64,000 nt of DNA, taken from contig CAWBKB010000007.1 of the NCBI GenBank assembly GCA_963789265.1, forward strand, positions 224,001 to 288,000, given 5' to 3'. The notes under the pieces are model-generated. The model did no database searches. It was not told the origin of the DNA and saw only the letters and a list, made by a program, of their open reading frames with translations. Position numbers and translations under genes: made by a program. Of this stretch, positions 3,413 through 14,043 are shown in pieces (position 1 is the first letter of the stretch; each line of letters begins with the position of its first letter). This DNA is from an uncultured delta proteobacterium. Lineage in GTDB: Bacteria; Desulfobacterota; Desulfomonilia; Desulfomonilales; Desulfomonilaceae.

Positions 3413-3707
3413 ATTGCACCTCAGCCTCAGCAATTACTTTGTCCCTGAAATAACGACTCAGCTCTTGAGGGGTCCGAAGATCCACCTTGCGACCGCCGAG
3501 ACCGTCTGAGAGTTCTTGCTCCATATCAGCAAGCTCAAAATAACCCGGCGTGCTCCCTTGCTCGAATTCGACGAGGAAATCCAGGTCGCTTTCAGCTCCG
3601 AAATCGTCGCGTAGATACGACCCGAAAATGGATAGCTTCCTGACATGGTGTCGGCGGCAAAAGTCTTTGATGAAATCACGAGGAATGACCGGACGCTCTT
3701 GGTTCAT
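3399..3707 (-). CDS. Minimal nucleotidyltransferase (MNT) antitoxin
   Basis: FCRRHHVRKLSIFGSYLRDDFGAESDLDFLVEF...[14 protein letters not shown] upstream of ATG 3707. Confidence 0.9.
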   Translation of the reverse strand: MNQERPVIPRDFIKDFCRRHHVRKLSIFGSYLRDDFGAESDLDFLVEFEQGSTPGYFELADMEQELSDGLGGRKVDLRTPQELSRYFRDKVIAEAEVQYAGG

Positions 3708-3929
3708 CGGACCCTCCTTCCTCACGGGGCCACCGGAGCATAGTCTTGTTCACAAAAAATATCCTTTTATCAGATGGAAGGCAACCGGGAAAGCCTCGAT
3801 TGAAGTCAGGCACCGGCCTAGCCTAGCCAAACATCTCATATTATGGCCCACTCATACCCGCATGGATTTGACTGACCGGCTTATGGGCGTCACTAAATAC
3901 AGCTAAAGCGGAACGCGACATTCTTTCTC

Positions 3930-4045
3930 AATCCCTTACTCAATGCTTCTCGGGGGCACTTTTGGCCTGAGTTTCTCATATGCAATACGCCGGCGGGCTC
4001 GCCTTTCATGAGATCTTCCATTTGTCTGTCAACAATTAAGTCGCC
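3930..4045 (-). repeat. Degenerate third copy of the RAYT 3'-end remnant
   Basis: Translates VDRQMEDLMKGEPAGVLH, compared with IDKQMEDFISRLEEEPAKVLY at 9.2 kb; shares tcttccatttgt..gtcaa. Confidence 0.5.
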
Positions 4046-4112
4046 CGGGGCGCATGCCATTCCATCCTGCGGTTCCTCGCATACGCTGGGTGTCATGTTT
4101 TCCAATGAATCA

Positions 4113-4140
4113 TTGACGCGTTGCCTGTCTATGATACAAT
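4113..4140 (+). promoter_or_regulatory. Candidate sigma70 promoter for the capsid-toxin operon
   Basis: TTGACG (4113) - 16 nt - TACAAT (4135), with an extended -10 TG at 4132. Confidence 0.45.
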
Positions 4141-4356
4141 TAAATTAGAGGGTCCTACTTTTATTAGGCCAACCCACGGAAGGGCGAAGACCCGATACTT
4201 CGTCATAGAGTGGCCTACAAGGATAACTTTCTGAAAAAATGGTACGGGCACCCGTTGAGAATTCAGATCCACGGGTCCAAAGAAACTCCTTCTTTCATTC
4301 ATCTCTGACATAGGCTTGTCGGCCTGGCATCAAACTGTCTGCAAAGGAAAGGGGCT

Positions 4357-5574
4357 ATGGGTGAAACTGCTTTCGATTTCATGAAAATCTGGACCCAAGG
4401 CGACCAGGAATCGGAATTCAAGCTCAAGAGCGTATTGCTCGACGGATTGGATTCCGTGGTCCAAGCACAGGGCGATGTGCTCTCAAAAATCCGAGTGGAT
4501 CGCTCGATAGCCACTCCTGTGGTTCGCTGGATGGAAGAAAGGGGTTATCCTTCTGCTGTCACTACCCAATTGACGGAAAAAACTATGGTCTTTAGCGGCC
4601 TACTTTTCGGTCGGAGTGTCAATGCAGACTCAATCCGCAAGGTGATCCGAGCAGGGACCATTCTCGAACGTCCGCGAGATGGCTGCCAAGTGAAGATTTC
4701 ATCGCTCGACGGGCTTTCGGCCGCGGTGACGGCATACGGCAACACCAGTTTGGCCGATGATCCGGCACCTGTCGCTTGGGATGTCATTTCCGAGGTATGG
4801 TCTGACTTTCGAGATGCTTCCGGGCCCCGATCGCTTGACAGGAAATCCCGCGAGGTCGGCACACAGATATTCGCCGAGACATTTGAGATTCCCAAAACCA
4901 GGAAGAATACCAAGTACGAAATCATTGAATTTGAATCAGAGCATCAGATTCTCGCACTGATTGCCAAGCTCAGGCGTCAACTCGCGTATGCCATACTCAG
5001 ATCCCGGCCTTTCCATGACGGATCGCAATTCGTATGGGGGAACAAGACCGAAGAGCCGACCCTATGCGGTCTCTGCACTTGGCCGGTTGTAACTTACGAT
5101 GAAATTCCCAATCCGAATGTGTACGTCAACAAAAACGGGCAGGCTCTTACCAAGACTGATCTGGACAATCTTGTCCGCGGGCTTTGGCTTGACGAGCATG
5201 CGGACTACAACAAGGGCGACTGGTGGATCGCCTGTCATCCTGCCGTCCACCAATTCATCCAGGACTTTGACATTTGCTATCGACGAATCGAGAAAAAAGA
5301 CAAAACTGTCGGTTTTCATGTAGATGAATTCCATTCCAAGATCGGCAAAACCTTTCCCATCCTATCCGAGCCGTTTATGCGGCCCGGCGTGCTGATCGCG
5401 GTGAATTTCAAGGCCTTCAAATATGGCTATTATGCTAACGATTCTCTGGAACGCCAGGAGATTCCCACTCAGGGCCGATATCAACGCTGGCTTATTTCCT
5501 TCCAAACGTACGGCGTGGTAGCTCGCAATCCCAGGGCCAATATCGGCATGATCTACGGACTGCCGGTCAGTTAG
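4357..5574 (+). CDS. Phage-type major capsid protein, SU10/DUF5309-like (HK97 fold)
   Basis: 405 aa. Motif order W.EE..., TQIFAETFEI..T, E.EHQI....KL.RQL..AIL, ..GFHVDEF.S..G...I....M..G...., GVVARNP.A.....GL matches SU10-type capsids. Recognised from memory, not by search. Confidence 0.7.
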   Translation: MGETAFDFMKIWTQGDQESEFKLKSVLLDGLDSVVQAQGDVLSKIRVDRSIATPVVRWMEERGYPSAVTTQLTEKTMVFSGLLFGRSVNADSIRKVIRAGTILERPRDGCQVKISSLDGLSAAVTAYGNTSLADDPAPVAWDVISEVWSDFRDASGPRSLDRKSREVGTQIFAETFEIPKTRKNTKYEIIEFESEHQILALIAKLRRQLAYAILRSRPFHDGSQFVWGNKTEEPTLCGLCTWPVVTYDEIPNPNVYVNKNGQALTKTDLDNLVRGLWLDEHADYNKGDWWIACHPAVHQFIQDFDICYRRIEKKDKTVGFHVDEFHSKIGKTFPILSEPFMRPGVLIAVNFKAFKYGYYANDSLERQEIPTQGRYQRWLISFQTYGVVARNPRANIGMIYGLPVS

Positions 5575-5698
5575 TTCAAATAAGCTAAACCCCGTTAATT
5601 ATCAAATATCTGCGTTAAATCAACTCCATAACTACTTTTTGTCTTATCCGCTTCACGTGTGGTTTCACGTTTTCCATTTGATGAAAGGAGAATAATGC

Positions 5699-6622
5699 AT
5701 GATCGAAACCGAGGACCAACGGCGCTGGTGGTTCGCCACTCACCCGGAGTTTAGCTGGAGCCGTCGAGGTATAAGAGGTGACAACAAGGTAGATCCGGCG
5801 GAAGTCGATCAATATGTAAACAGGGCACTCAAGTACGAAAGCGGGCCTGTCGGGGAGCTGCTGAAATCGGTGAAGAAGCATTTTGGTACGGAAGCCTACC
5901 CCAACGAGCATGACAAATTAGCCGACAACCGTGGTACTGATTCGTCGTCCCAGCAGCCGAAGCAACCTCAGGCAACGATTGGACCACCCGAACCGCCCGG
6001 CCTTAGTGATCGTGCTCGATATGTTTTGGACATTGTGTGTCCCGGCCTAACCAAGGCGTATGATAGGTGGCGAACGGGCTATTACAACGCATATCCGTGG
6101 GCCCCAGGTCCTGTTTACGATGCACTTGGCGATTTGATGAGTCTGGTGCCCATCGGCCTTGCGAAAATTCAAGCCACCCTGGCGAAGGCAGTAAACCCGG
6201 CCGAGATTGCTGCTTTACAGAATGCTCGCCAAGAGTTACTTAAAATCTGGGATCACGCAAATTTCCCTCGAGGATGGGCCATTGAAGACCACTTGGGCCG
6301 GGATCTTCCCCGTACCTTCAAGGGTATTGACGGGTTTGAGAATGGAGTGGCCACGAGTATCAAGAGCATGGACCTCCGCCTAAACTCGTATCAAGATCCT
6401 GCCAAGATTCTCTCGCAAGGCCGGAAGTATGTTGATCAGGTGGCCAACTTTGACGGAGCGCGCATGGGAGACACCCGGATTAGCGCCGAACAGATAACCG
6501 AAAGGGTCTTACGCCTCGGTGTGCCCCCCGGTGCTACAAAGACCCAGCAGTCGGCTCTGAAAAGTCTGGTTGAATACGGTAAACAAAACGGCGTGAAAGT
6601 GGAGGTTATTAGAGTGCCATGA
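5699..6622 (+). CDS. Polymorphic toxin with C-terminal EC869/YPIII-type CdiA-CT endonuclease
   Basis: C-terminus FKGIDGFENGVATSIKSMDL...Y....I....RKYVD...F.G...G...I....I..R.L.L.VP.....Q...L.....YG...GVKVEV is the PD-(D/E)xK CdiA-CT pattern. GAAAGGAG RBS; N-terminus MIETEDQRRWWFATHPE. Confidence 0.8.
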   Translation: MIETEDQRRWWFATHPEFSWSRRGIRGDNKVDPAEVDQYVNRALKYESGPVGELLKSVKKHFGTEAYPNEHDKLADNRGTDSSSQQPKQPQATIGPPEPPGLSDRARYVLDIVCPGLTKAYDRWRTGYYNAYPWAPGPVYDALGDLMSLVPIGLAKIQATLAKAVNPAEIAALQNARQELLKIWDHANFPRGWAIEDHLGRDLPRTFKGIDGFENGVATSIKSMDLRLNSYQDPAKILSQGRKYVDQVANFDGARMGDTRISAEQITERVLRLGVPPGATKTQQSALKSLVEYGKQNGVKVEVIRVP

Positions 6623-7062
6623 AATGCGCAGGAGCATACAAAAGAGAGAAGAAGATATATCTTAACCCTAGTTCGAAAACGACGAAGGGCCTTTGGATCG
6701 GTACGTCTCCACGAATTATTTTTGATGAGACGGAACCTCCCTCAGTAAAAGGTAAATATCTAAAAGAAGTTCTGAGCCATTCCCAAGAGGGTGTACCTCA
6801 TCCTACAGACTGGGACAGCTTGCTCCAGAAGTTTCTGAAGGAGGTAGGCGTTAAATCATGGAGCAAATTCGCTAATACTGCCCTTTCATGCACATTTGAC
6901 CTTAAAGGAGATCAGTTGGAATTTCTTCCGTGGCGGAATTCGGGTCCCCGGGAGCACTACAATTTTGTGCCAATTAGGGATCGAAAAATGACCATTTCCT
7001 TCGATGCTTCCGATGAAGAGTTGGGCCTCTTTTTGGAAAAGGCGTTCGAGGCTTGTGAATAG
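6619..7062 (+). CDS. CdiI-like immunity protein (DUF1436-like)
   Basis: ATGA overlap with the toxin stop; 147 aa; ends ASDEELGLFLEKAFEAC, resembling EC869-type CdiI. Confidence 0.75.
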   Translation: MKCAGAYKREKKIYLNPSSKTTKGLWIGTSPRIIFDETEPPSVKGKYLKEVLSHSQEGVPHPTDWDSLLQKFLKEVGVKSWSKFANTALSCTFDLKGDQLEFLPWRNSGPREHYNFVPIRDRKMTISFDASDEELGLFLEKAFEACE

Positions 7063-7268
7063 AAGAGGGAAAGAGCCTCATTGCATGCCCGAGCCGAAAG
7101 AGCAGTAGTGAACCTCCAAGGGAATTGGCGCGGAAGAACAAGCATGGGGTCAGCTCTTTCCATTTGGCATTCACACGAATCTCTGATGTCTGATCTGAAC
7201 CGACTGCCATTACCTGAATATTTGGACTCAAGTAATATTGAAGCTCATGCCGCGACCTACAGTGATAT

Positions 7269-7409
7269 TTTTATTCTCGTTCCCAGGCTCCGCCTGGGAA
7301 TGCCCGCCTTGGAGGCTCTGCCTCGCCTTTGACTGCTAAATGAAGGCGATTTGCGGGCAGAGCCCGCGAGATATGAGTTCCCAGGCAGAGCCTGGGAACC
7401 AGAATAAAA
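7269..7409. repeat. REP/MITE-like element, family A (CTCGTTCCCAGGCTC.GCCTGGGAA)
   Basis: 32-bp terminal inverted repeats (7269-7300 and 7378-7409) with 2 mismatches, each arm itself palindromic. Confidence 0.85.
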
Positions 7410-7701
7410 CGCAACAAAATCGAGGCAGCTAGAAACTCGTGGGATAAAAGCAAAGCAGGCGGATGAACTTAATGATATTCGCAGCGGCGGCAAAGGGAGC
7501 GGAGTGTGGACGGAAGAAGAATTGGAGAGGATCCGGAAGACTGGGAAATTCCCGGATGATGCAGTATGGCATCATGACCCTACAGTTGCCAATGCTCCTG
7601 ATAGGGCCGTCGATCAGAATGCAGTACATACAATGCGCGGAGGACCAAAAGCTCATTTGCGAGACGGTCACCACGGGAATTATCAGAATCCAAAAAAATA
7701 G
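7408..7701 (+). pseudogene. Orphan toxin tip, Tox-GHH-like HNH nuclease, lacking a start and N-terminus
   Basis: Frame opens after TAA 7405: ...GGKGSGVWTEEELERIRKTGKFPDDAVWHHDPTVANAPDRAVDQNAV...HLRDGHHGNYQN. This fits the WT..E....G...xHH...V...P..A.D..N...HL...H.GN pattern. Confidence 0.7.
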
Positions 7702-7763
7702 GTACATTGAAAGTATAAAATCATTTCATCGTTCGCATGAACGAATTGGAGGAAGCCGCAAAA

Positions 7764-8265
7764 ATGAAACCAGGACTTCTGGAAAGTGTGCTGATTCGGC
7801 GGTACCGGTAGACCTAAAATCTCTGTCAATAGCGCCTTGGTTCAACAATGCTGGAAGCTCGACGAACCCGATAATTCCTCCCTGTTGTACATGGGAATGA
7901 AATGGGAGGGACGCTTGGGCACCCGTTTTGCTGGCCTAAAGGGAATTTACGGTAATGCTTTCGGTGGATTCTTGGTCGGGAATTCCCTCAAGATTGCGGT
8001 ACTGCTGCCCCGCAAAGTGTGGGGTCTCTGGCGGATAGATGAGCTCCAAATGCTCCGTCCGGTGAGAATAGCTTTGGCAATTGATCCTGCCATTGATTTC
8101 TTTATGGACGCGGCCAACGTCTGGTATTACGGTCATAAGGAAGGTGAGCTGTACGTCTTCGATGCTGAGACGGATGAACTGGATTCGTTAGGGCCAATTG
8201 AACCGGCTCTGGACAGCCTTATCGATCAATGGGAAGAAGCCGGCCAACCGCTTCCGAAAAATTAG
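7764..8265 (+). CDS. Probable immunity protein for the orphan tip (SUKH/SMI1-like C-terminus), probable frameshift near 7790
   Basis: Lies directly after the orphan tip. ORF 7837-8265 ends GELYVFDAETDELDSLG. An upstream ATG at 7764 with GGAGG is in another frame. Confidence 0.5.
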
Positions 8266-8280
8266 ACCCGTACGGCGGCA

Positions 8281-8928
8281 TTGATGAGTCCGAGCCGGCG
8301 AAAAGCACGAACTGAAGCGATATTGAGGAAGGAAGGTATTCCCTTTCTTCCATCGCTTCCGTGCATTGAGTCTGAGGACGACACTGAATTGCGCAGTGCG
8401 GAAGAGGTCGGTCTGCGAATGCTCTGCCTGTTCAGTGTCATTGGCACCGCTTACGACCCGTCCGACGCATCATATAAACGGTATCTCAAGAAATACCGCC
8501 TCTGGGGCTACCTCACTCCTGATGAACTGTCTTTCATGTCCAATCCCGCGCCGGACCACAGGACTTGTATGATTTTGACTTGGCGGGTAGAAGCACTACT
8601 GGTGCTGATGTGGGCGGTGCGTCTGTTCAAAATGCTGCCATTCCCCACCCATCAAGTAGACAACCCAAAAATTATCGCCAAATTTCCCAGCTTTGACAAA
8701 TCTCCGCAGCCTTTTATCCTTAGCCTCAAACTGCGCCCTAAACCTACAATTCTGAATAACTCCGATCTCATATATCGGCTCCACTGGGCCACTACCCAAG
8801 CAAAGATAGAGGGACAGCCTCCGCCCGGCGGACTCGATCCGGAAATTGTCTATGAGTGGCATTATGCGATAAATTGGATTACAAAATATGATGATGCGGA
8901 TTGGGATGATGTCGCGACTGATACTTAG
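8281..8928 (+). CDS. DUF4272 family protein
   Basis: WRVEALLVLMWA...DLIYRLHWA...LD.EIVYEWHYAINWI...WDDVATDT. Confidence 0.85.
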   Translation: MMSPSRRKARTEAILRKEGIPFLPSLPCIESEDDTELRSAEEVGLRMLCLFSVIGTAYDPSDASYKRYLKKYRLWGYLTPDELSFMSNPAPDHRTCMILTWRVEALLVLMWAVRLFKMLPFPTHQVDNPKIIAKFPSFDKSPQPFILSLKLRPKPTILNNSDLIYRLHWATTQAKIEGQPPPGGLDPEIVYEWHYAINWITKYDDADWDDVATDT

Positions 8929-8971
8929 CCTCTACTTGCAATAATTGGGGCTACCATAAAGCGTTCCGAGG

Positions 8972-9053
8972 TTTTCTCGTTCCCAGGCTCCGCCTCGCCT
9001 TTGACTGCTAAATGAAGGCGATTTGCGGGCAGAGCCCGGGAACCAGAATAAAA
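8972..9053. repeat. Family A REP element, internally deleted direct copy of 7269-7409
   Basis: Shares cctttgactgctaaatgaaggcgatttgcgggcagagccc exactly, plus both ends. Confidence 0.85.
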
Positions 9054-9123
9054 AACGATCCCATAGCTGTCTCGAAGGGAAAAGAGACCAAACCTCCGTC
9101 CTAGTGAGACAGAAGGGAGAGCT

Positions 9124-9157
9124 AAACAATAGGGGCATCACGATGCCCCTATTGTTT
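9124..9157. terminator. Perfect 16-bp-stem hairpin, candidate bidirectional terminator
   Basis: aaacaataggggcatc-ac-gatgcccctattgttt, followed by T residues, between convergent units. Confidence 0.6.
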
Positions 9158-9175
9158 TTCTGATTTCAAATTAGG

Positions 9176-9598
9176 AATTCCGGGTACACCATACTCAATT
9201 CCCTTTGGCGATTCCTTTTGGTCCGGGTTTCCATCTATACAATACTTTGGCAGGCTCTTCTTCCAGCCGACTTATGAAATCTTCCATTTGTTTGTCAATT
9301 AAGTATGGCGTACCCAGGATTAGGCGTGAAATTACAGCGGGCACCGCTACAAAATGAACATGCTTCGGCATGAGACAGTGCGCCCAAATCTCCACGTGAA
9401 GCTTCCTGCGCCGTTGAGCCATCAGATCGATATAGGCGCCGTAATCTTCATGACGAAAAAAGGTCAGCAGTCTGCGATTGCCTCGCTGTGTGACATGATG
9501 AGGCATTCCCGGCGCCACGACTCGTGCTACTTGACCCATAAGCGTGTCTCAGAGAATCAGACTCGTTTGGCCTAATTAGGTATGGTGTATCCGGAACT
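9176..9598 (-). mobile_element. Internally deleted REP-associated tyrosine transposase (RAYT/Y1) with flanking REP-like motifs
   Basis: ORF 9195-9539 reads MGQVARVVAPGMPHHVTQRGNRR...CLMPKHVH (HUH) fused to the KPGPK C-terminus. The ~25-bp motif occurs at 9176 (-), 9297 (+) and 9574 (+). Confidence 0.85.
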
Positions 9599-9634
9599 CC
9601 GCGATGCATCCATGAAGAGCCCAAGAGATCTTTC

Positions 9635-10105
9635 TTAGCGCCCCCTCTTAGGTTCCGGAATGATTTTGGGCAAATACCGGAAATTCTCCGGTTTGGCAAC
9701 GCCTGCATCCGGACTATCCGGACCAGCAGCACCAAAAGGATAGGACTCTACGCCCAACTGCGACGGCAAAGAAGCGGGCGGTGGGCCCGGCGGTGGAGGC
9801 GCTGGAAGTAACGCCTCACCAGCTTTCAGTTCCGCTATGACATCTTTTGGAATCGGCACTGGAGAGTTCGCATTCAGCATATCTACCGCCCATGCGCGGA
9901 GTCCAGGAGTCAGCTTCTTCGGGTCCTTCTCTGTCAATACCGAGACAGCTAGTCTCACATAGTCCCGGTTTAGATTGCGTGCTGCTAGTGTTTCCTGCCC
10001 AATCCATCCCAGAATCGCTATCACTGTGGGAATTGCAACCAGAGAAAGCACTTTGGCTGGGGTCTCGATTCTTTCCCAGAAGCTTTCTTTTGGGTTGTCG
10101 CTCAT
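9635..10105 (-). CDS. Hypothetical protein with one TM helix and a Pro-rich tail
   Basis: 156-aa ORF; AAAGGGG RBS; hydrophobic segment near residues 19-34. Confidence 0.6.
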   Translation of the reverse strand: MSDNPKESFWERIETPAKVLSLVAIPTVIAILGWIGQETLAARNLNRDYVRLAVSVLTEKDPKKLTPGLRAWAVDMLNANSPVPIPKDVIAELKAGEALLPAPPPPGPPPASLPSQLGVESYPFGAAGPDSPDAGVAKPENFRYLPKIIPEPKRGR

Positions 10106-11712: not shown

Positions 11713-12186
11713 TCAGGTTCTGAGCTTATCCAAGAGTTCACCTGCGCTGCAGGCGGCTTCATCAAATGCCGAAATAACAGCTTCAACTTCTGCTGCTGGC
11801 CACTGCATGTCAGACAGCGGTTTTGATAGGCTGGTCTGATAGGCGAGTATCTGTGCGCCACCTGAGTCAGTGCTTGGGTGCGCATGAATCAGTGCATTGC
11901 GCCGAATAATTAGATCGCTGAATTTCTCGAGGCAGTCTGTCAGTTCTTCTTGAGTCACCTTGGTAAAGCTGGTCGCTGGATTACCGATTACATCGCGAAG
12001 GTGGTCCCGTACCGCTCCAGAAGTCATTGTCTTAACTCGGCAGTACTCACCGAGAAAACCGTTGTCCAGTAATTCTATGATGCAGATAATAGTCCACTCA
12101 TAGTACGCAAACACATACACGGCTTTGCCGACAAGAGCGGCATATTGGTCGTCCACGGGCACTCGGGTCGTGCTGTTAAGTGGCAT
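11713..12186 (-). CDS. Hypothetical protein, HEPN-like (RxxxxH)
   Basis: All-helical looking 157 aa with RNALIH; GGAGG upstream of ATG 12186. Confidence 0.55.
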   Translation of the reverse strand: MPLNSTTRVPVDDQYAALVGKAVYVFAYYEWTIICIIELLDNGFLGEYCRVKTMTSGAVRDHLRDVIGNPATSFTKVTQEELTDCLEKFSDLIIRRNALIHAHPSTDSGGAQILAYQTSLSKPLSDMQWPAAEVEAVISAFDEAACSAGELLDKLRT

Positions 12187-12339
12187 CGTTACAGCCTCCC
12201 GTAACATGGAGTAAGATTCATCGAAAAAGATCGAGGCGCACAATACCATTATTGTGTTTACATGTCAGAGGTTTTTTCTTGCCACTGTTTTATATCATCG
12301 GCAAATCCACCGGCAGCCGCAACCGAAAAAAGCAATAGC

Positions 12340-12535
12340 TCACCGCAGAGAACGCGGAGGGCGCAGAGAAGAAGGGTAGCTTGTTCAGCGCCACGAGAGT
12401 GGCCGGGGCGCACAATTAAGCCGGAATTGCGCCTTCCGCGTCTCGGTGGATTACAGACTAGAATTTGCTATGCTCCATCGGATAGACGTGCGGCGAAATC
12501 AGAATTATCCGCGTTCTCTGCGCGCTCTGCGGTGA
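12340..12535. repeat. ~196-bp MITE-like element with TCACCGCAGAG..CGCGGAG inverted ends
   Basis: Has inverted termini, and its interior aligns with the reverse complement of 34257-34452. Confidence 0.8.
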
Positions 12536-12635
12536 ACCCTGGAGCGTCTCACCCGACGATAATTGACTTTCTTGCCAATCCAAAATAGTCTGCCAAGACT
12601 GGCTTATCATGCCGGATTTTTTTTCGGAGTACAGA

Positions 12636-12836
12636 ATGGAACGCAAGAACTGCTGGGAGTTTACAAAGTGTGGACGAGAGAAGGAATGTCCCGCATACCC
12701 GAAACATGGCCGTAACTGTTTTGCCGTCACCGGGTCCATGTGTAGAGGCCAAAAGCAAGGCACTTATGACGAAAAGATAGCGAAGTGCAGAGAACTTTGT
12801 GATTTCTACAAAGAGATGATGGAAGGCAAAGCGTAA
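12636..12836 (+). CDS. Small Cys-rich two-CW domain protein
   Basis: KNCWEF.KCGRE..CPAYP..GR.C....G..C.G..QG....K...C...CDFY. Confidence 0.75.
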   Translation: MERKNCWEFTKCGREKECPAYPKHGRNCFAVTGSMCRGQKQGTYDEKIAKCRELCDFYKEMMEGKA

Positions 12837-12930
12837 GATACGGGCAACGGGACAAGCCATCTACCCGAGTCCGTTGCCAGCCATTCCCACGTCAGATTAA
12901 CCGGTCAAGTCACAGTGGAGAGAATTTGCA

Positions 12931-14043
12931 ATGCGCAAATCGACCGCCAGACGTGCAAGAGCCGCAAACAGGTCTTCGGCAGCCCGCATCAGTGCGAAAC
13001 GATCCAAAAAGATCGGCCTGCCGCCGGGCACGCTCGTGCATGTGGGGGAGAAGTTCGGCGAGAAAGTCAGAGTTTCTGTAATCGACTACGATGAAACATC
13101 TTGCCGGCAAAGGGAAGTTACCAATATCTCCGATCTGGCGCCATTTAGAGACAGCCCTGCCACGACCTGGATCAATATCGACGGAATCCACGACATGGCC
13201 ACCATTGAGGCGATCGGCGGTCTGTTTCATTTGCATCCTCTTGTGCTTGAAGATATTGTCAACGCGACTCAGCGACCGAAGATAGACGAAGCCGGTGATT
13301 ACGTCTTCATGGTTTTGAGAGTCCTCGATTATTGTGAAGAATCGGACGAGATAACTTGCAGGCAATTGAGCCTGATCCTCGGTTCTACTTTTTTGCTCTC
13401 CTTCCAGGAGGAGGCAGGAGACCTGTTCAATCCGGTCAAGGAAAGAATAAAAGGCGGCTCGGGCCGTGTCAGGAAGAACGGCCCGGATTACCTAACGTAC
13501 TGCCTAATTGATACTGTCGTAGACAACTATTTTGCCATCCTGGACAAGCTCTCCGAAAAGATAGAATTGCTGGAAGAAGAGGTGGTAACAAACCCGGGGC
13601 GTGAAACCTTGCAGGCAATCCACAAGTTAAAGACCGACATGGTCTATCTGCGCAAGTCAATATGGCCTTTAAGAGAGGTAATCAACGTGTTGGGACGAGA
13701 AGATTCGGCCCTGATCAAGGATTCCACACAACCATACCTCAAGGACGTTTACGATCACACGATTCATGCTATTGATACAACGGAGACATTTAGAGATATA
13801 GTTTCTGGCATGCTGGACATATATTTATCGAGTGTAAGCAATAGGCTCAATGAAATCATGAAAGTTCTGACAATTATTGCAACGATTTTCATACCTTTGT
13901 CCTTTTTATGCGGATGGTACGGAATGAATTTCAAGAACATGCCCGAATATGGCTGGCGCTGGGGATATCCTATGGTAATCGGCATCGCGCTTGCTATTGT
14001 GGCTTCCATGCTCATTTATTTTAGACGTAAGAATTGGTTGTGA
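12931..14043 (+). CDS. corA: Magnesium/cobalt transporter CorA
   Basis: GLPPGTL, HPLVLEDI..QRPK, YGMNF..MPE, and two C-terminal TM helices. Confidence 0.97.
   Translation: MRKSTARRARAANRSSAARISAKRSKKIGLPPGTLVHVGEKFGEKVRVSVIDYDETSCRQREVTNISDLAPFRDSPATTWINIDGIHDMATIEAIGGLFHLHPLVLEDIVNATQRPKIDEAGDYVFMVLRVLDYCEESDEITCRQLSLILGSTFLLSFQEEAGDLFNPVKERIKGGSGRVRKNGPDYLTYCLIDTVVDNYFAILDKLSEKIELLEEEVVTNPGRETLQAIHKLKTDMVYLRKSIWPLREVINVLGREDSALIKDSTQPYLKDVYDHTIHAIDTTETFRDIVSGMLDIYLSSVSNRLNEIMKVLTIIATIFIPLSFLCGWYGMNFKNMPEYGWRWGYPMVIGIALAIVASMLIYFRRKNWL

Follow-up and report, generated by a model that had tools for sequence, protein, structure and literature searches.

A phage capsid paralogue paired with polymorphic nuclease toxins in the Desulfomonilaceae, and its possible part in toxin delivery by an SU10-like particle

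Introduction

The N-terminal domain of a polymorphic toxin normally sets its route of export (Zhang et al. 2012, PMC3482391; PMC12226406). Among these routes, a "MuF phage-capsid-like" secretion was proposed by Zhang et al. 2012 (PMC3482391), and MuF toxins located on temperate phages have been described by Jamet et al. 2017 (PMC5576092). Here we report on a locus in a 64-kb stretch of DNA from a genome of the Desulfomonilaceae, where a phage-type major capsid gene precedes the gene of a polymorphic nuclease toxin. The whole stretch is called the window, and coordinates are window positions unless a contig or another locus is named. The first-pass annotation, made from the letters of the window alone, had placed six genes on the plus strand here, namely the capsid gene, a toxin with an EC869-type tip, an overlapping CdiI-like gene, a GHH tip, a second immunity-like gene and a DUF4272 gene, and all six were recovered (4357-8928; Table 1). 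The conserved N-terminal domain of the toxin is called toxN in the following.

The toxins studied here are similar to MuF toxins, as presented in the relevant parts of the papers above, in being small, unstalked and polymorphic, with variable C-terminal tips, immunity genes and phage-derived neighbourhoods of head and packaging genes. They differ in that the conserved module is a new domain of ~70–85 aa found only in Desulfomonilaceae, that the element concerned is SU10-like and that the toxin is accompanied by a capsid paralogue dedicated to it, a feature missing from the description of MuF toxins in those parts. The MuF domain (PF04233) was absent from the toxin and from the whole genome, using a search that was positive in 5 of 14 control genomes. 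The system, as we picture it, works like the MuF proposal but is not a member of that group, since the MuF domain is missing from both toxin and genome.

The toxin tip and its immunity protein are homologous to those of the contact-dependent inhibition (CDI) pair CdiA-CT(EC869)/CdiI (PF21111, PF07262, 4g6u), and an array of an orphan tip and immunity genes lies downstream, as in CDI loci. Unlike CdiA, the toxin of the window is only 307 aa long, and neither haemagglutinin repeats nor a pretoxin/VENN region or a Sec signal were seen by Pfam or by eye. CdiB gave no match in the family search, which lacked a positive control. As only the tip and the immunity gene are in common, the locus is not a CDI locus. 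A sheath of the type VI secretion system (T6SS) was not found in the genome.

Encapsulins are HK97-fold nanocompartments with peptide-targeted cargo. The locus is like them in having an HK97-fold shell gene beside a gene whose product has a short conserved terminal sequence. However, the shell protein is a phage capsid of PF17236, a portal/terminase cluster encodes a close paralogue of it, encapsulins match it only distantly in fold, the cargo would be a toxin with an immunity gene, and self-assembly of the shell is hypothetical. By its family assignment the capsid is not an encapsulin, though the fold is common to both.

Two further kinds of phage-derived device are relevant, gene transfer agents (GTAs) such as RcGTA and the internal head proteins of phage T4 (IPI-III and Alt) with their capsid-targeting sequences. 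As in RcGTA, there is a head-tail cluster of phage origin that a bacterial family has retained and that is divided in part between loci in one genus; unlike a GTA, the cluster described below could still be a temperate phage. The likeness proposed to the T4 proteins is that an N-terminal signal would address proteins to the head, from where they would be ejected into a target cell. toxN is longer than the T4 signal, though, and no prohead protease was identified in the cluster of the genome studied. A search of the full-text literature, with subscription journals and supplements outside its scope, did not turn up any account of polymorphic toxins that have a capsid paralogue as partner, of a toxN domain or of such particles in the family, in agreement with the first-pass annotation, which had not recognised the arrangement as a described system.

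A phage capsid gene in two settings

The capsid protein of the window belongs to the SU10_MCP family (PF17236, E 5.8e-28, 98.7 bits against a cut-off of 24.1), and a profile of its relatives matched the major head protein in 7z45 (E 7e-4); phmmer of the capsid against the PDB gave nothing meaningful. An AlphaFold2 (AF2) model built from a diverse alignment reached a pLDDT of 88.9 and a pTM of 0.80, and replaced an earlier run on 53 close relatives (pLDDT 47) that was not used for the fold search. With this model, Foldseek found phage VP1 (9in6, E 2e-20, TM 0.70), SU10 (7z48, E 2e-15) and HK97 (1ohg, E 7e-10). Podophage capsids ranked first, a GTA capsid was also found, and encapsulins appeared from rank 37 on. 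The HK97 fold, which the first-pass annotation had expected for this protein, is supported by the model, and the window capsid is, as modelled, an SU10-type HK97-fold phage capsid. A large protein collection contained at least 248 relatives; the 120 of them that were listed are 383–445 aa long and 66–85% identical, are named DUF5309 or SU10 capsid, and come from Desulfomonile-type metagenome-assembled genomes.

We surveyed 70 Desulfomonilaceae genomes (26 genera), together with loci fetched from public genomes (genomes, contigs and loci of the survey carry the prefixes G, C and L), and found a capsid match in 47 of the 70. The capsid genes occur in two settings. In type-A loci, the capsid gene is preceded by a scaffold-like gene, by a conserved gene of 94 aa named "cl5" and in most cases by a portal gene, and is followed by structural genes. 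Type-B loci, such as that of the window, have no morphogenesis neighbours; here a toxin gene starts 125–340 nt after the capsid stop codon, and its first 65–120 residues match the window toxin. A maximum-likelihood tree divided 31 full-length capsids into two clades with 100/100 support each, clade B with the 11 rows of type B and clade A with the 20 of type A. This tree left out same-place duplicates (L001, L015-L017, L021, L023, L042), the second L006 copy and partial genes. A FastTree run with five added copies placed that of G063:C91 and the second copy of G032 in clade B, and the second copies of G048 and G066 in clade A. A third full-length capsid copy (L058, G034:C8:40391-41599) fell outside both clades in the FastTree run; cl5, scaffold and toxN are all missing within 3 kb of it.

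A toxN gene follows the capsid gene on the same strand, at most 700 bp from its 3' end, in 13 of the 14 full-length clade-B cases (a count that takes in the second L006 copy from the tblastn table) as compared to only 1 of 22 in clade A. The capsid-B/toxN pairs span 10 genera and lie in differing neighbourhoods. Portal, scaffold and terminase genes, present beside the clade-A paralogue in the same genome, are absent next to the capsid in the window and in the other clade-B loci. Furthermore, no other phage structural gene was found within up to 10 kb of the clade-B loci L003-L006, L008, L009 and L011-L013, among 147 open reading frames (ORFs) of at least 95 aa in 10 loci. The surroundings within 10 kb consist of ordinary chromosomal genes that vary by locus, and of insertion sequence (IS) elements. 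That neighbours differ between loci and phage structural genes are lacking suggests that the capsid-B/toxin pair moves or persists as a unit. A capsid gene followed by a toxin with conserved N-terminus and variable tip, and by an immunity gene, thus recurs in other genomes with no other phage gene found within 10 kb, as the first-pass annotation had supposed.

Both clades are under purifying selection. The median dN/dS (NG86) is 0.087 in clade B, from the 32 of 55 pairs with dS below 2.5, and 0.080 in clade A, from the 57 of 171 pairs with dS below 2.5. This argues that the clade-B capsid is a working gene, and not a deletion relic. Intact clade-B genes of 400–405 aa were found in 12 of the 70 genomes, belonging to 10 genera. 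Their upstream regions share a ribosome-binding site, and a similar -35/-10 pair could be aligned in 5 of 12; a frame fusing capsid and toxin was not present in the intergenic regions of the clade-B loci. When viral contigs were searched, a single capsid as query found nothing, and alignment queries gave four capsid loci and one toxN locus, all clade-A-like or fragments.

Some loci show how capsid B is lost. In L012 (G025:C31, 1868-2008) and L013 (G030:C7, 10001-10144), capsid codons 2-49 alone are left, ~35 nt before an intact EC869-type toxN toxin and CdiI; these remnants look like a clean internal deletion that kept the 5' end of the capsid gene, perhaps for its promoter. L008 (G030:C32, 10001-13700) has a frameshift in its clade-B capsid, which is separated from the toxN gene by an inserted group II intron with a reverse transcriptase/maturase at 11820-13121.

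toxN, an N-terminal domain shared by unrelated toxin tips

The EC869-type nature of the toxin tip, proposed in the first-pass annotation, is clear from both family and structure matches: aa 200-303 match CDI_toxin_EC869_like (PF21111, E 2.5e-22), and aa 172-306 match the solved EC869 CdiA-CT (4g6u, E 1.5e-13; 4zqu, E 1.4e-13). The E, D and S-x-K positions that we take to be the EC869 active site look conserved in the 4g6u alignment. When residues 1-120 of the toxin were used as a query, 76 proteins of 171–333 aa were retrieved. Their start, with the core QRRWWFATHP, is nearly invariant; a charged linker of variable sequence comes next, then another conserved stretch of ~35 residues, and beyond it they diverge completely. 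The conserved domain is ~70–85 aa long. The tips fall in six Pfam toxin families or in none; by count among the 76, they are PF21111 (17), PF14412 AHH (11), PF09533 (11), PF15636 GHH (9), PF14411 LHH (8), PF14040 NucA/NucB (3) and no family (17).

Residues 1-199 of the toxin had no match in Pfam, NCBIfam, PADLOC or PHROGs, and a protein atlas gave no usable match for toxN; the toxin as a whole, the immunity genes and the orphan tip were likewise without a match in PADLOC, NCBIfam and PHROGs. A Tat signal, suggested by the RR-W-W-F core, was rejected by eye as no hydrophobic h-region follows, and no signal-peptide-like hydrophobic stretch was seen by eye anywhere in toxN. Judged from its sequence, toxN belongs to none of the known trafficking classes (type V, type VI and type VII secretion systems, MuF, Photorhabdus virulence cassettes, Sec). 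It occurs in 21 of the 70 family genomes and 12 of the 26 genera, and in none of 393 sampled genomes of other families in the phylum.

The genes downstream switch with the tip, as seen from homology and position, on which all immunity assignments are based. CdiI-like genes follow EC869 tips, SUKH genes follow LHH tips, Imm11 follows AHH (in a pseudogene of the same genome), and the second immunity-like gene of the window, imm2, has homologs after GHH tips. The CdiI-like gene scores 26.3 bits against PF07262 (cut-off 25), and in L009 (three copies), L012 and L013 its homologs likewise come after a toxin of the EC869 type. Over 65 aa, the orphan tip shares 77% identity with the C-terminus of P0145, which has toxN and is annotated as PF15636 Tox-GHH, and the full-length version of the tip is that of the toxin in L006; since the orphan has no N-terminal domain, the frame is a 5'-truncated orphan. 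Neither the orphan tip nor imm2 has a Pfam match of its own. Homologs of imm2 directly follow GHH tips in L003, L006 and L008, and it is therefore likely the cognate immunity gene. The DUF4272 protein matches PF14094 with E 3.9e-61, and the order imm2-DUF4272 is repeated in L008, where a SUKH gene comes next. With a conserved N-terminal module, varied tips, cognate immunity genes and an orphan cassette, the locus has the make-up of a polymorphic toxin system in the sense of Zhang et al. 2012.

An SU10-like head-tail cluster in the same genome and across the family

The genome contains a clade-A cluster of ~22 kb on the same contig, ~100 kb upstream of the window (G000:C7:124783-146720). It encodes a portal (PF23899), cl5, a scaffold-like protein, capsid A, NlpC/P60 and M15 peptidases, an SU10 adaptor (PF24175), a 1061-aa Kelch-repeat protein and a large terminase, with the genes from portal to terminase at C7:124783-145483. 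Capsid A (C7:128300-129517) is a paralogue of the window capsid, with 70% identity. No integrase or replication family was found at C7:120813-147653 or in the flanks, where many ORFs are without family. The window capsid had been called solitary. This holds for the window, where Pfam found no phage or secretion gene besides the capsid among 50 ORFs scanned (14 + 36; beyond 14 kb only ORFs of at least 110 aa), as had been stated from inspection. It does not hold for the genome, with a clade-A cluster 100 kb away, nor for sister genomes, in which toxN toxins lie inside such clusters.

The portal gene is present in 49 of the 70 genomes, mostly once, and in 22 of the 26 genera, and the capsid tree groups by genus. 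Similar clusters from portal to terminase are seen in L048-L051, L052/L056, L060 and L061. Rather than being a prophage, the SU10-like cluster could have become domesticated as a GTA-like element, though it may still be a temperate phage. In genus g4 (L062, L063 and L064, the last on G017:C10), a single capsid gene lies among core genes (DsrC, TPR, sensor-kinase), for example in L062 (G023:C13, capsid 7439-8644), and a cluster of portal, scaffold, peptidase and adaptor genes that lacks a capsid gene is located on another contig (L063, G023:C6, portal 7151-9136). This separation of capsid from portal cluster makes it plausible that capsid genes act in trans in this family. One in-frame TGA is present in several of the portal matches from g4.

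The portal end of the cluster is flanked in several genera by genes for a Mut7-C RNase, EamA, a cyclophilin-like protein, a Ser/Thr kinase-WD40 protein and a zinc ribbon (C7:116403-121851; L003, 2147-9227; L007, 3447-5454). The Mut7-C gene lies within 7 kb of the portal gene in G000, G029, G036, G049 and G066, far from it in G045 and G050, and on other contigs elsewhere. Its position is compatible with vertical inheritance as well as with a preferred site of integration.

toxN genes in and around the clusters

In several genomes, toxN genes are physically embedded in the SU10-like cluster. In G027, G029 and an IMG/VR contig they occupy the same two sites, after p107 and after p241/p140. G032 has one toxN gene after the portal gene and another after capsid A, and the order of its head module is portal-toxin-...-capsid B-cl5-scaffold-capsid A-toxin, so that a clade-B capsid lies inside the cluster, directly before cl5. 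A capsid-B remnant with a toxN toxin is found immediately upstream of the portal gene in G034 and G049. The tips of these cluster-embedded toxins are of the NucA/NucB, Tox-REase-5 and AHH types. By hand comparison, at least 24 of 74 toxN matches lie directly 3' of a capsid or capsid remnant, and about a dozen more are inside or at the edge of clusters; the others occur singly or in arrays.

In the genome studied, toxN is intact only in the toxin gene of the window. Another toxN gene, of the AHH type, contains an in-frame TGA and lies together with Imm11 at 11 kb upstream of the portal gene, and a toxN fragment of 33 codons is found just after the terminase block.

A portal gene is present in 20 of 21 toxN-positive but only 29 of 49 toxN-negative genomes (Fisher p 0.002), a comparison in which related genomes are not independent. 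Since kin are not independent, the physical embedding is the stronger argument. The loci of toxN and capsid B are also crowded with repetitive elements (REP/MITE), IS elements and a group II intron.

Possible mechanism and alternative explanations

We propose, tentatively and at somewhat short of an even chance, that toxN places toxins in SU10-like particles, which deliver them, and that capsid B works in trans. As a head-targeting domain, toxN would direct the nuclease toxin to a part of the head, be it the inside of the capsid, the portal or some other component, and neighbouring cells without the immunity gene would receive it by injection from the particle. Capsid B, an old paralogue of the particle's own capsid that is under selection, would join in trans the scaffold, portal, tail and terminase made from the cluster 100 kb away, and give or contribute to toxin-carrying heads. 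Such a mechanism would be analogous to that of MuF-fused phage toxins and of phage internal head proteins. Binding of toxN to the particle, packaging, delivery and a specific role of capsid B are what we infer from the observed pairing, selection and embedding. The wider proposal, that the Desulfomonilaceae keep a domesticated SU10-like particle, GTA-like and multi-locus in some genera, which has been turned into a protein-toxin injector with toxN addressing toxins to the head and a co-inherited capsid paralogue building or modifying heads, is as a whole unlikely.

Several observations weigh against toxN-directed packaging with capsid B. About 50 of the 74 toxN matches have no adjoining capsid or remnant, and many lie in arrays away from phage genes. 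At the level of genera, the co-occurrence of toxN and portal falls short of significance (12 of 12 against 10 of 14, p 0.10); the portal match of G047 is weak (36% identical), and G028, which is 84% complete, has five toxN matches and no capsid or portal match. A possible role of toxN as a scaffold-like, coat-binding helix-turn-helix is not supported, as it shows no profile similarity to the scaffold protein of the element (hhalign probability 0.8%). By consensus match, the capsid-B operon seems to have its own sigma-70-like promoter, which does not link it to the cluster. Only three positions (3, 172 and 344) separate clade B from clade A, so that no specialised cargo surface is evident. Finally, capsid B is often lost while the toxin is kept: remnants (aa 2-49 or ~aa 320-405) precede toxN genes in at least eight loci, which suggests that capsid B is dispensable, at least where another capsid is present.

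A rival explanation, which we hold to be rather unlikely, is that the linkage has no shared mechanism behind it. The toxin cassettes would then be morons or addiction modules that insert at hotspots in and around the element, one of them just after a capsid gene, and capsid B would persist because of a phage-related role of its own, for example as a spare or variant subunit of the shell or in interference with related superinfecting phages; the toxins would exit by lysis or another route, or act inside the cell in a toxin-antitoxin-like manner or by abortive infection. The spread of toxN genes over several cluster sites and capsid-free arrays, the persistence of the toxin where capsid B decays, the slight difference between the clades and the abundance of REP/MITE, IS and group II intron sequences are all consistent with this, as is the missing profile similarity of toxN to the scaffold. 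It leaves unexplained, however, why otherwise unrelated toxins have an N-terminal domain of ~70–85 aa with an invariant core, and why a toxin lies directly 3' of 13 of 14 clade-B capsids over 10 genera. Uptake after lysis would moreover involve toxins of 200–330 aa that have no receptor-binding or translocation domains, and PADLOC found no defence family.

The first-pass annotation had itself taken the capsid for a lone, encapsulin-like vehicle, in which capsid B would self-assemble into a closed shell, without portal and tail, that stores or carries the toxin, with toxN as cargo-loading signal. The HK97 fold, the place of the shell gene just before a cargo-like gene whose product has a conserved terminal peptide, the absence of morphogenesis genes from the locus and the promoter-like site of its own agree with this, but we consider it improbable. 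The protein is a phage capsid of the SU10 type that shares 70% identity with the one encoded by a complete head-tail cluster of the same genome, and only three diagnostic positions set it apart from clade A; podophage capsids are nearest to it in structure, with encapsulins only from rank 37. Phage capsids of the SU10-like kind normally need a scaffold. The toxN toxins also occur in full clusters and, in ~50 of 74 cases, apart from any capsid, and a closed shell gives the toxin no way into the cytoplasm of the target cell, where a nuclease that has an immunity gene must arrive. If a vehicle exists, a whole phage-like particle is the more likely one, and loading of the toxin into any shell is conjectural. 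That the locus is a deletion relic of a prophage with a toxin moron after its capsid gene, the capsid now being without function, is highly improbable. The clade-A capsid of G032 that is followed by a toxN toxin inside a cluster may represent the ancestral arrangement, and broken or truncated capsid-B copies are common. But a dead gene would not stay open and constrained over such divergence: the intact clade-B genes of 12 of 70 genomes form one clade (100/100) with a median dN/dS of 0.087 at dS up to 2.5. Of these explanations, toxin packaging by way of toxN, with capsid B acting in trans, is the one that we favour.

Other features of the window

The features of the capsid-to-DUF4272 module, all six genes of which are on the plus strand, and of its borders are listed in Table 1.

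Table 1. Features of the capsid–toxin locus, in positions of the 64-kb window
Feature	Position	Strand	Remarks
Sigma-70-like promoter candidate	4113..4140	+	TTGACG-16 nt-TACAAT with upstream TG; ~215 nt before the capsid start; 10/12 consensus matches; consensus match only
Clade-B SU10-type major capsid protein paralogue, 405 aa	4357..5574	+	PF17236, HK97-fold model
toxN, conserved N-terminal domain of the toxin, aa 1-85	5699..5953	+	QRRWWFATHP core, variable charged linker, predicted helix-turn-helix-like second half
Linker and EC869-type nuclease tip (restriction-endonuclease fold) of the 307-aa toxin	5954..6622	+	PF21111, nuclease aa 200-303
CdiI-like immunity gene	6619..7062	+	PF07262; overlaps the toxin stop by 4 nt
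Palindromic REP/MITE-like element	7268..7415		Cuts off the 5' part of the orphan toxin frame
Orphan 5'-truncated Tox-GHH-type tip, without toxN	7408..7701	+	Frame open from 7408, GTG at 7504
Immunity-like gene (imm2), likely cognate to the GHH tip	7837..8265	+	No family; homologs directly 3' of GHH tips
DUF4272 protein, probably a further orphan immunity gene	8281..8928	+	PF14094; role suggested by position only
Second REP/MITE-like copy, bounding the orphan block	8963..9054		Recurrence of the element at 7268..7415
Terminator-like hairpin after the array	9124..9157	+	15 pairs and T run; consensus match only

The remaining 44 scanned ORFs of the window have toxin-antitoxin, transposase, polysaccharide, chemotaxis and transport functions by Pfam. 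A search of positions 3700-9700 against Rfam gave sub-threshold, chance-level matches only. Just 3' of the module lies an IS200/RAYT-like Y1 transposase gene (9195-9539, minus strand) with inverted repeats at 9174-9200 and 9574-9600, and just 5' of the capsid promoter a remnant (3893-4105, minus strand) resembles the C-terminus of this transposase; RAYT sequences are thus found on both sides of the module. Further upstream, at 1327-2313 on the plus strand, a 328-aa protein is encoded with a C-terminal TIR/nucleoside-deoxyribosyltransferase-like domain (PADLOC TIR effector, E 2e-17; below the cut-off in Pfam). It is kept beside the same locus in L011 and may be a defence gene.

Significance

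toxN is consistently partnered only by a paralogue of a phage capsid and by a head-tail cluster of the SU10-like kind. Should it be a domain that targets the head, it would be a compact and testable example of the idea of secretion by capsid packaging (MuF, 2012), with a signal of ~25–85 aa and a defined shell, and it might serve to load proteins into phage heads. If the injector reading is true, the system would be a capsid-based counterpart of the tail-based injectors (T6SS, extracellular contractile injection systems, tailocins), and the first with its own shell subunit. The Desulfomonilaceae, soil relatives of sulfate reducers and an environmentally important dehalogenating group, have in this phage-derived element a family-wide, conserved and partly multi-locus feature, and its pairing with toxins may be a new way for bacteria to deliver them.

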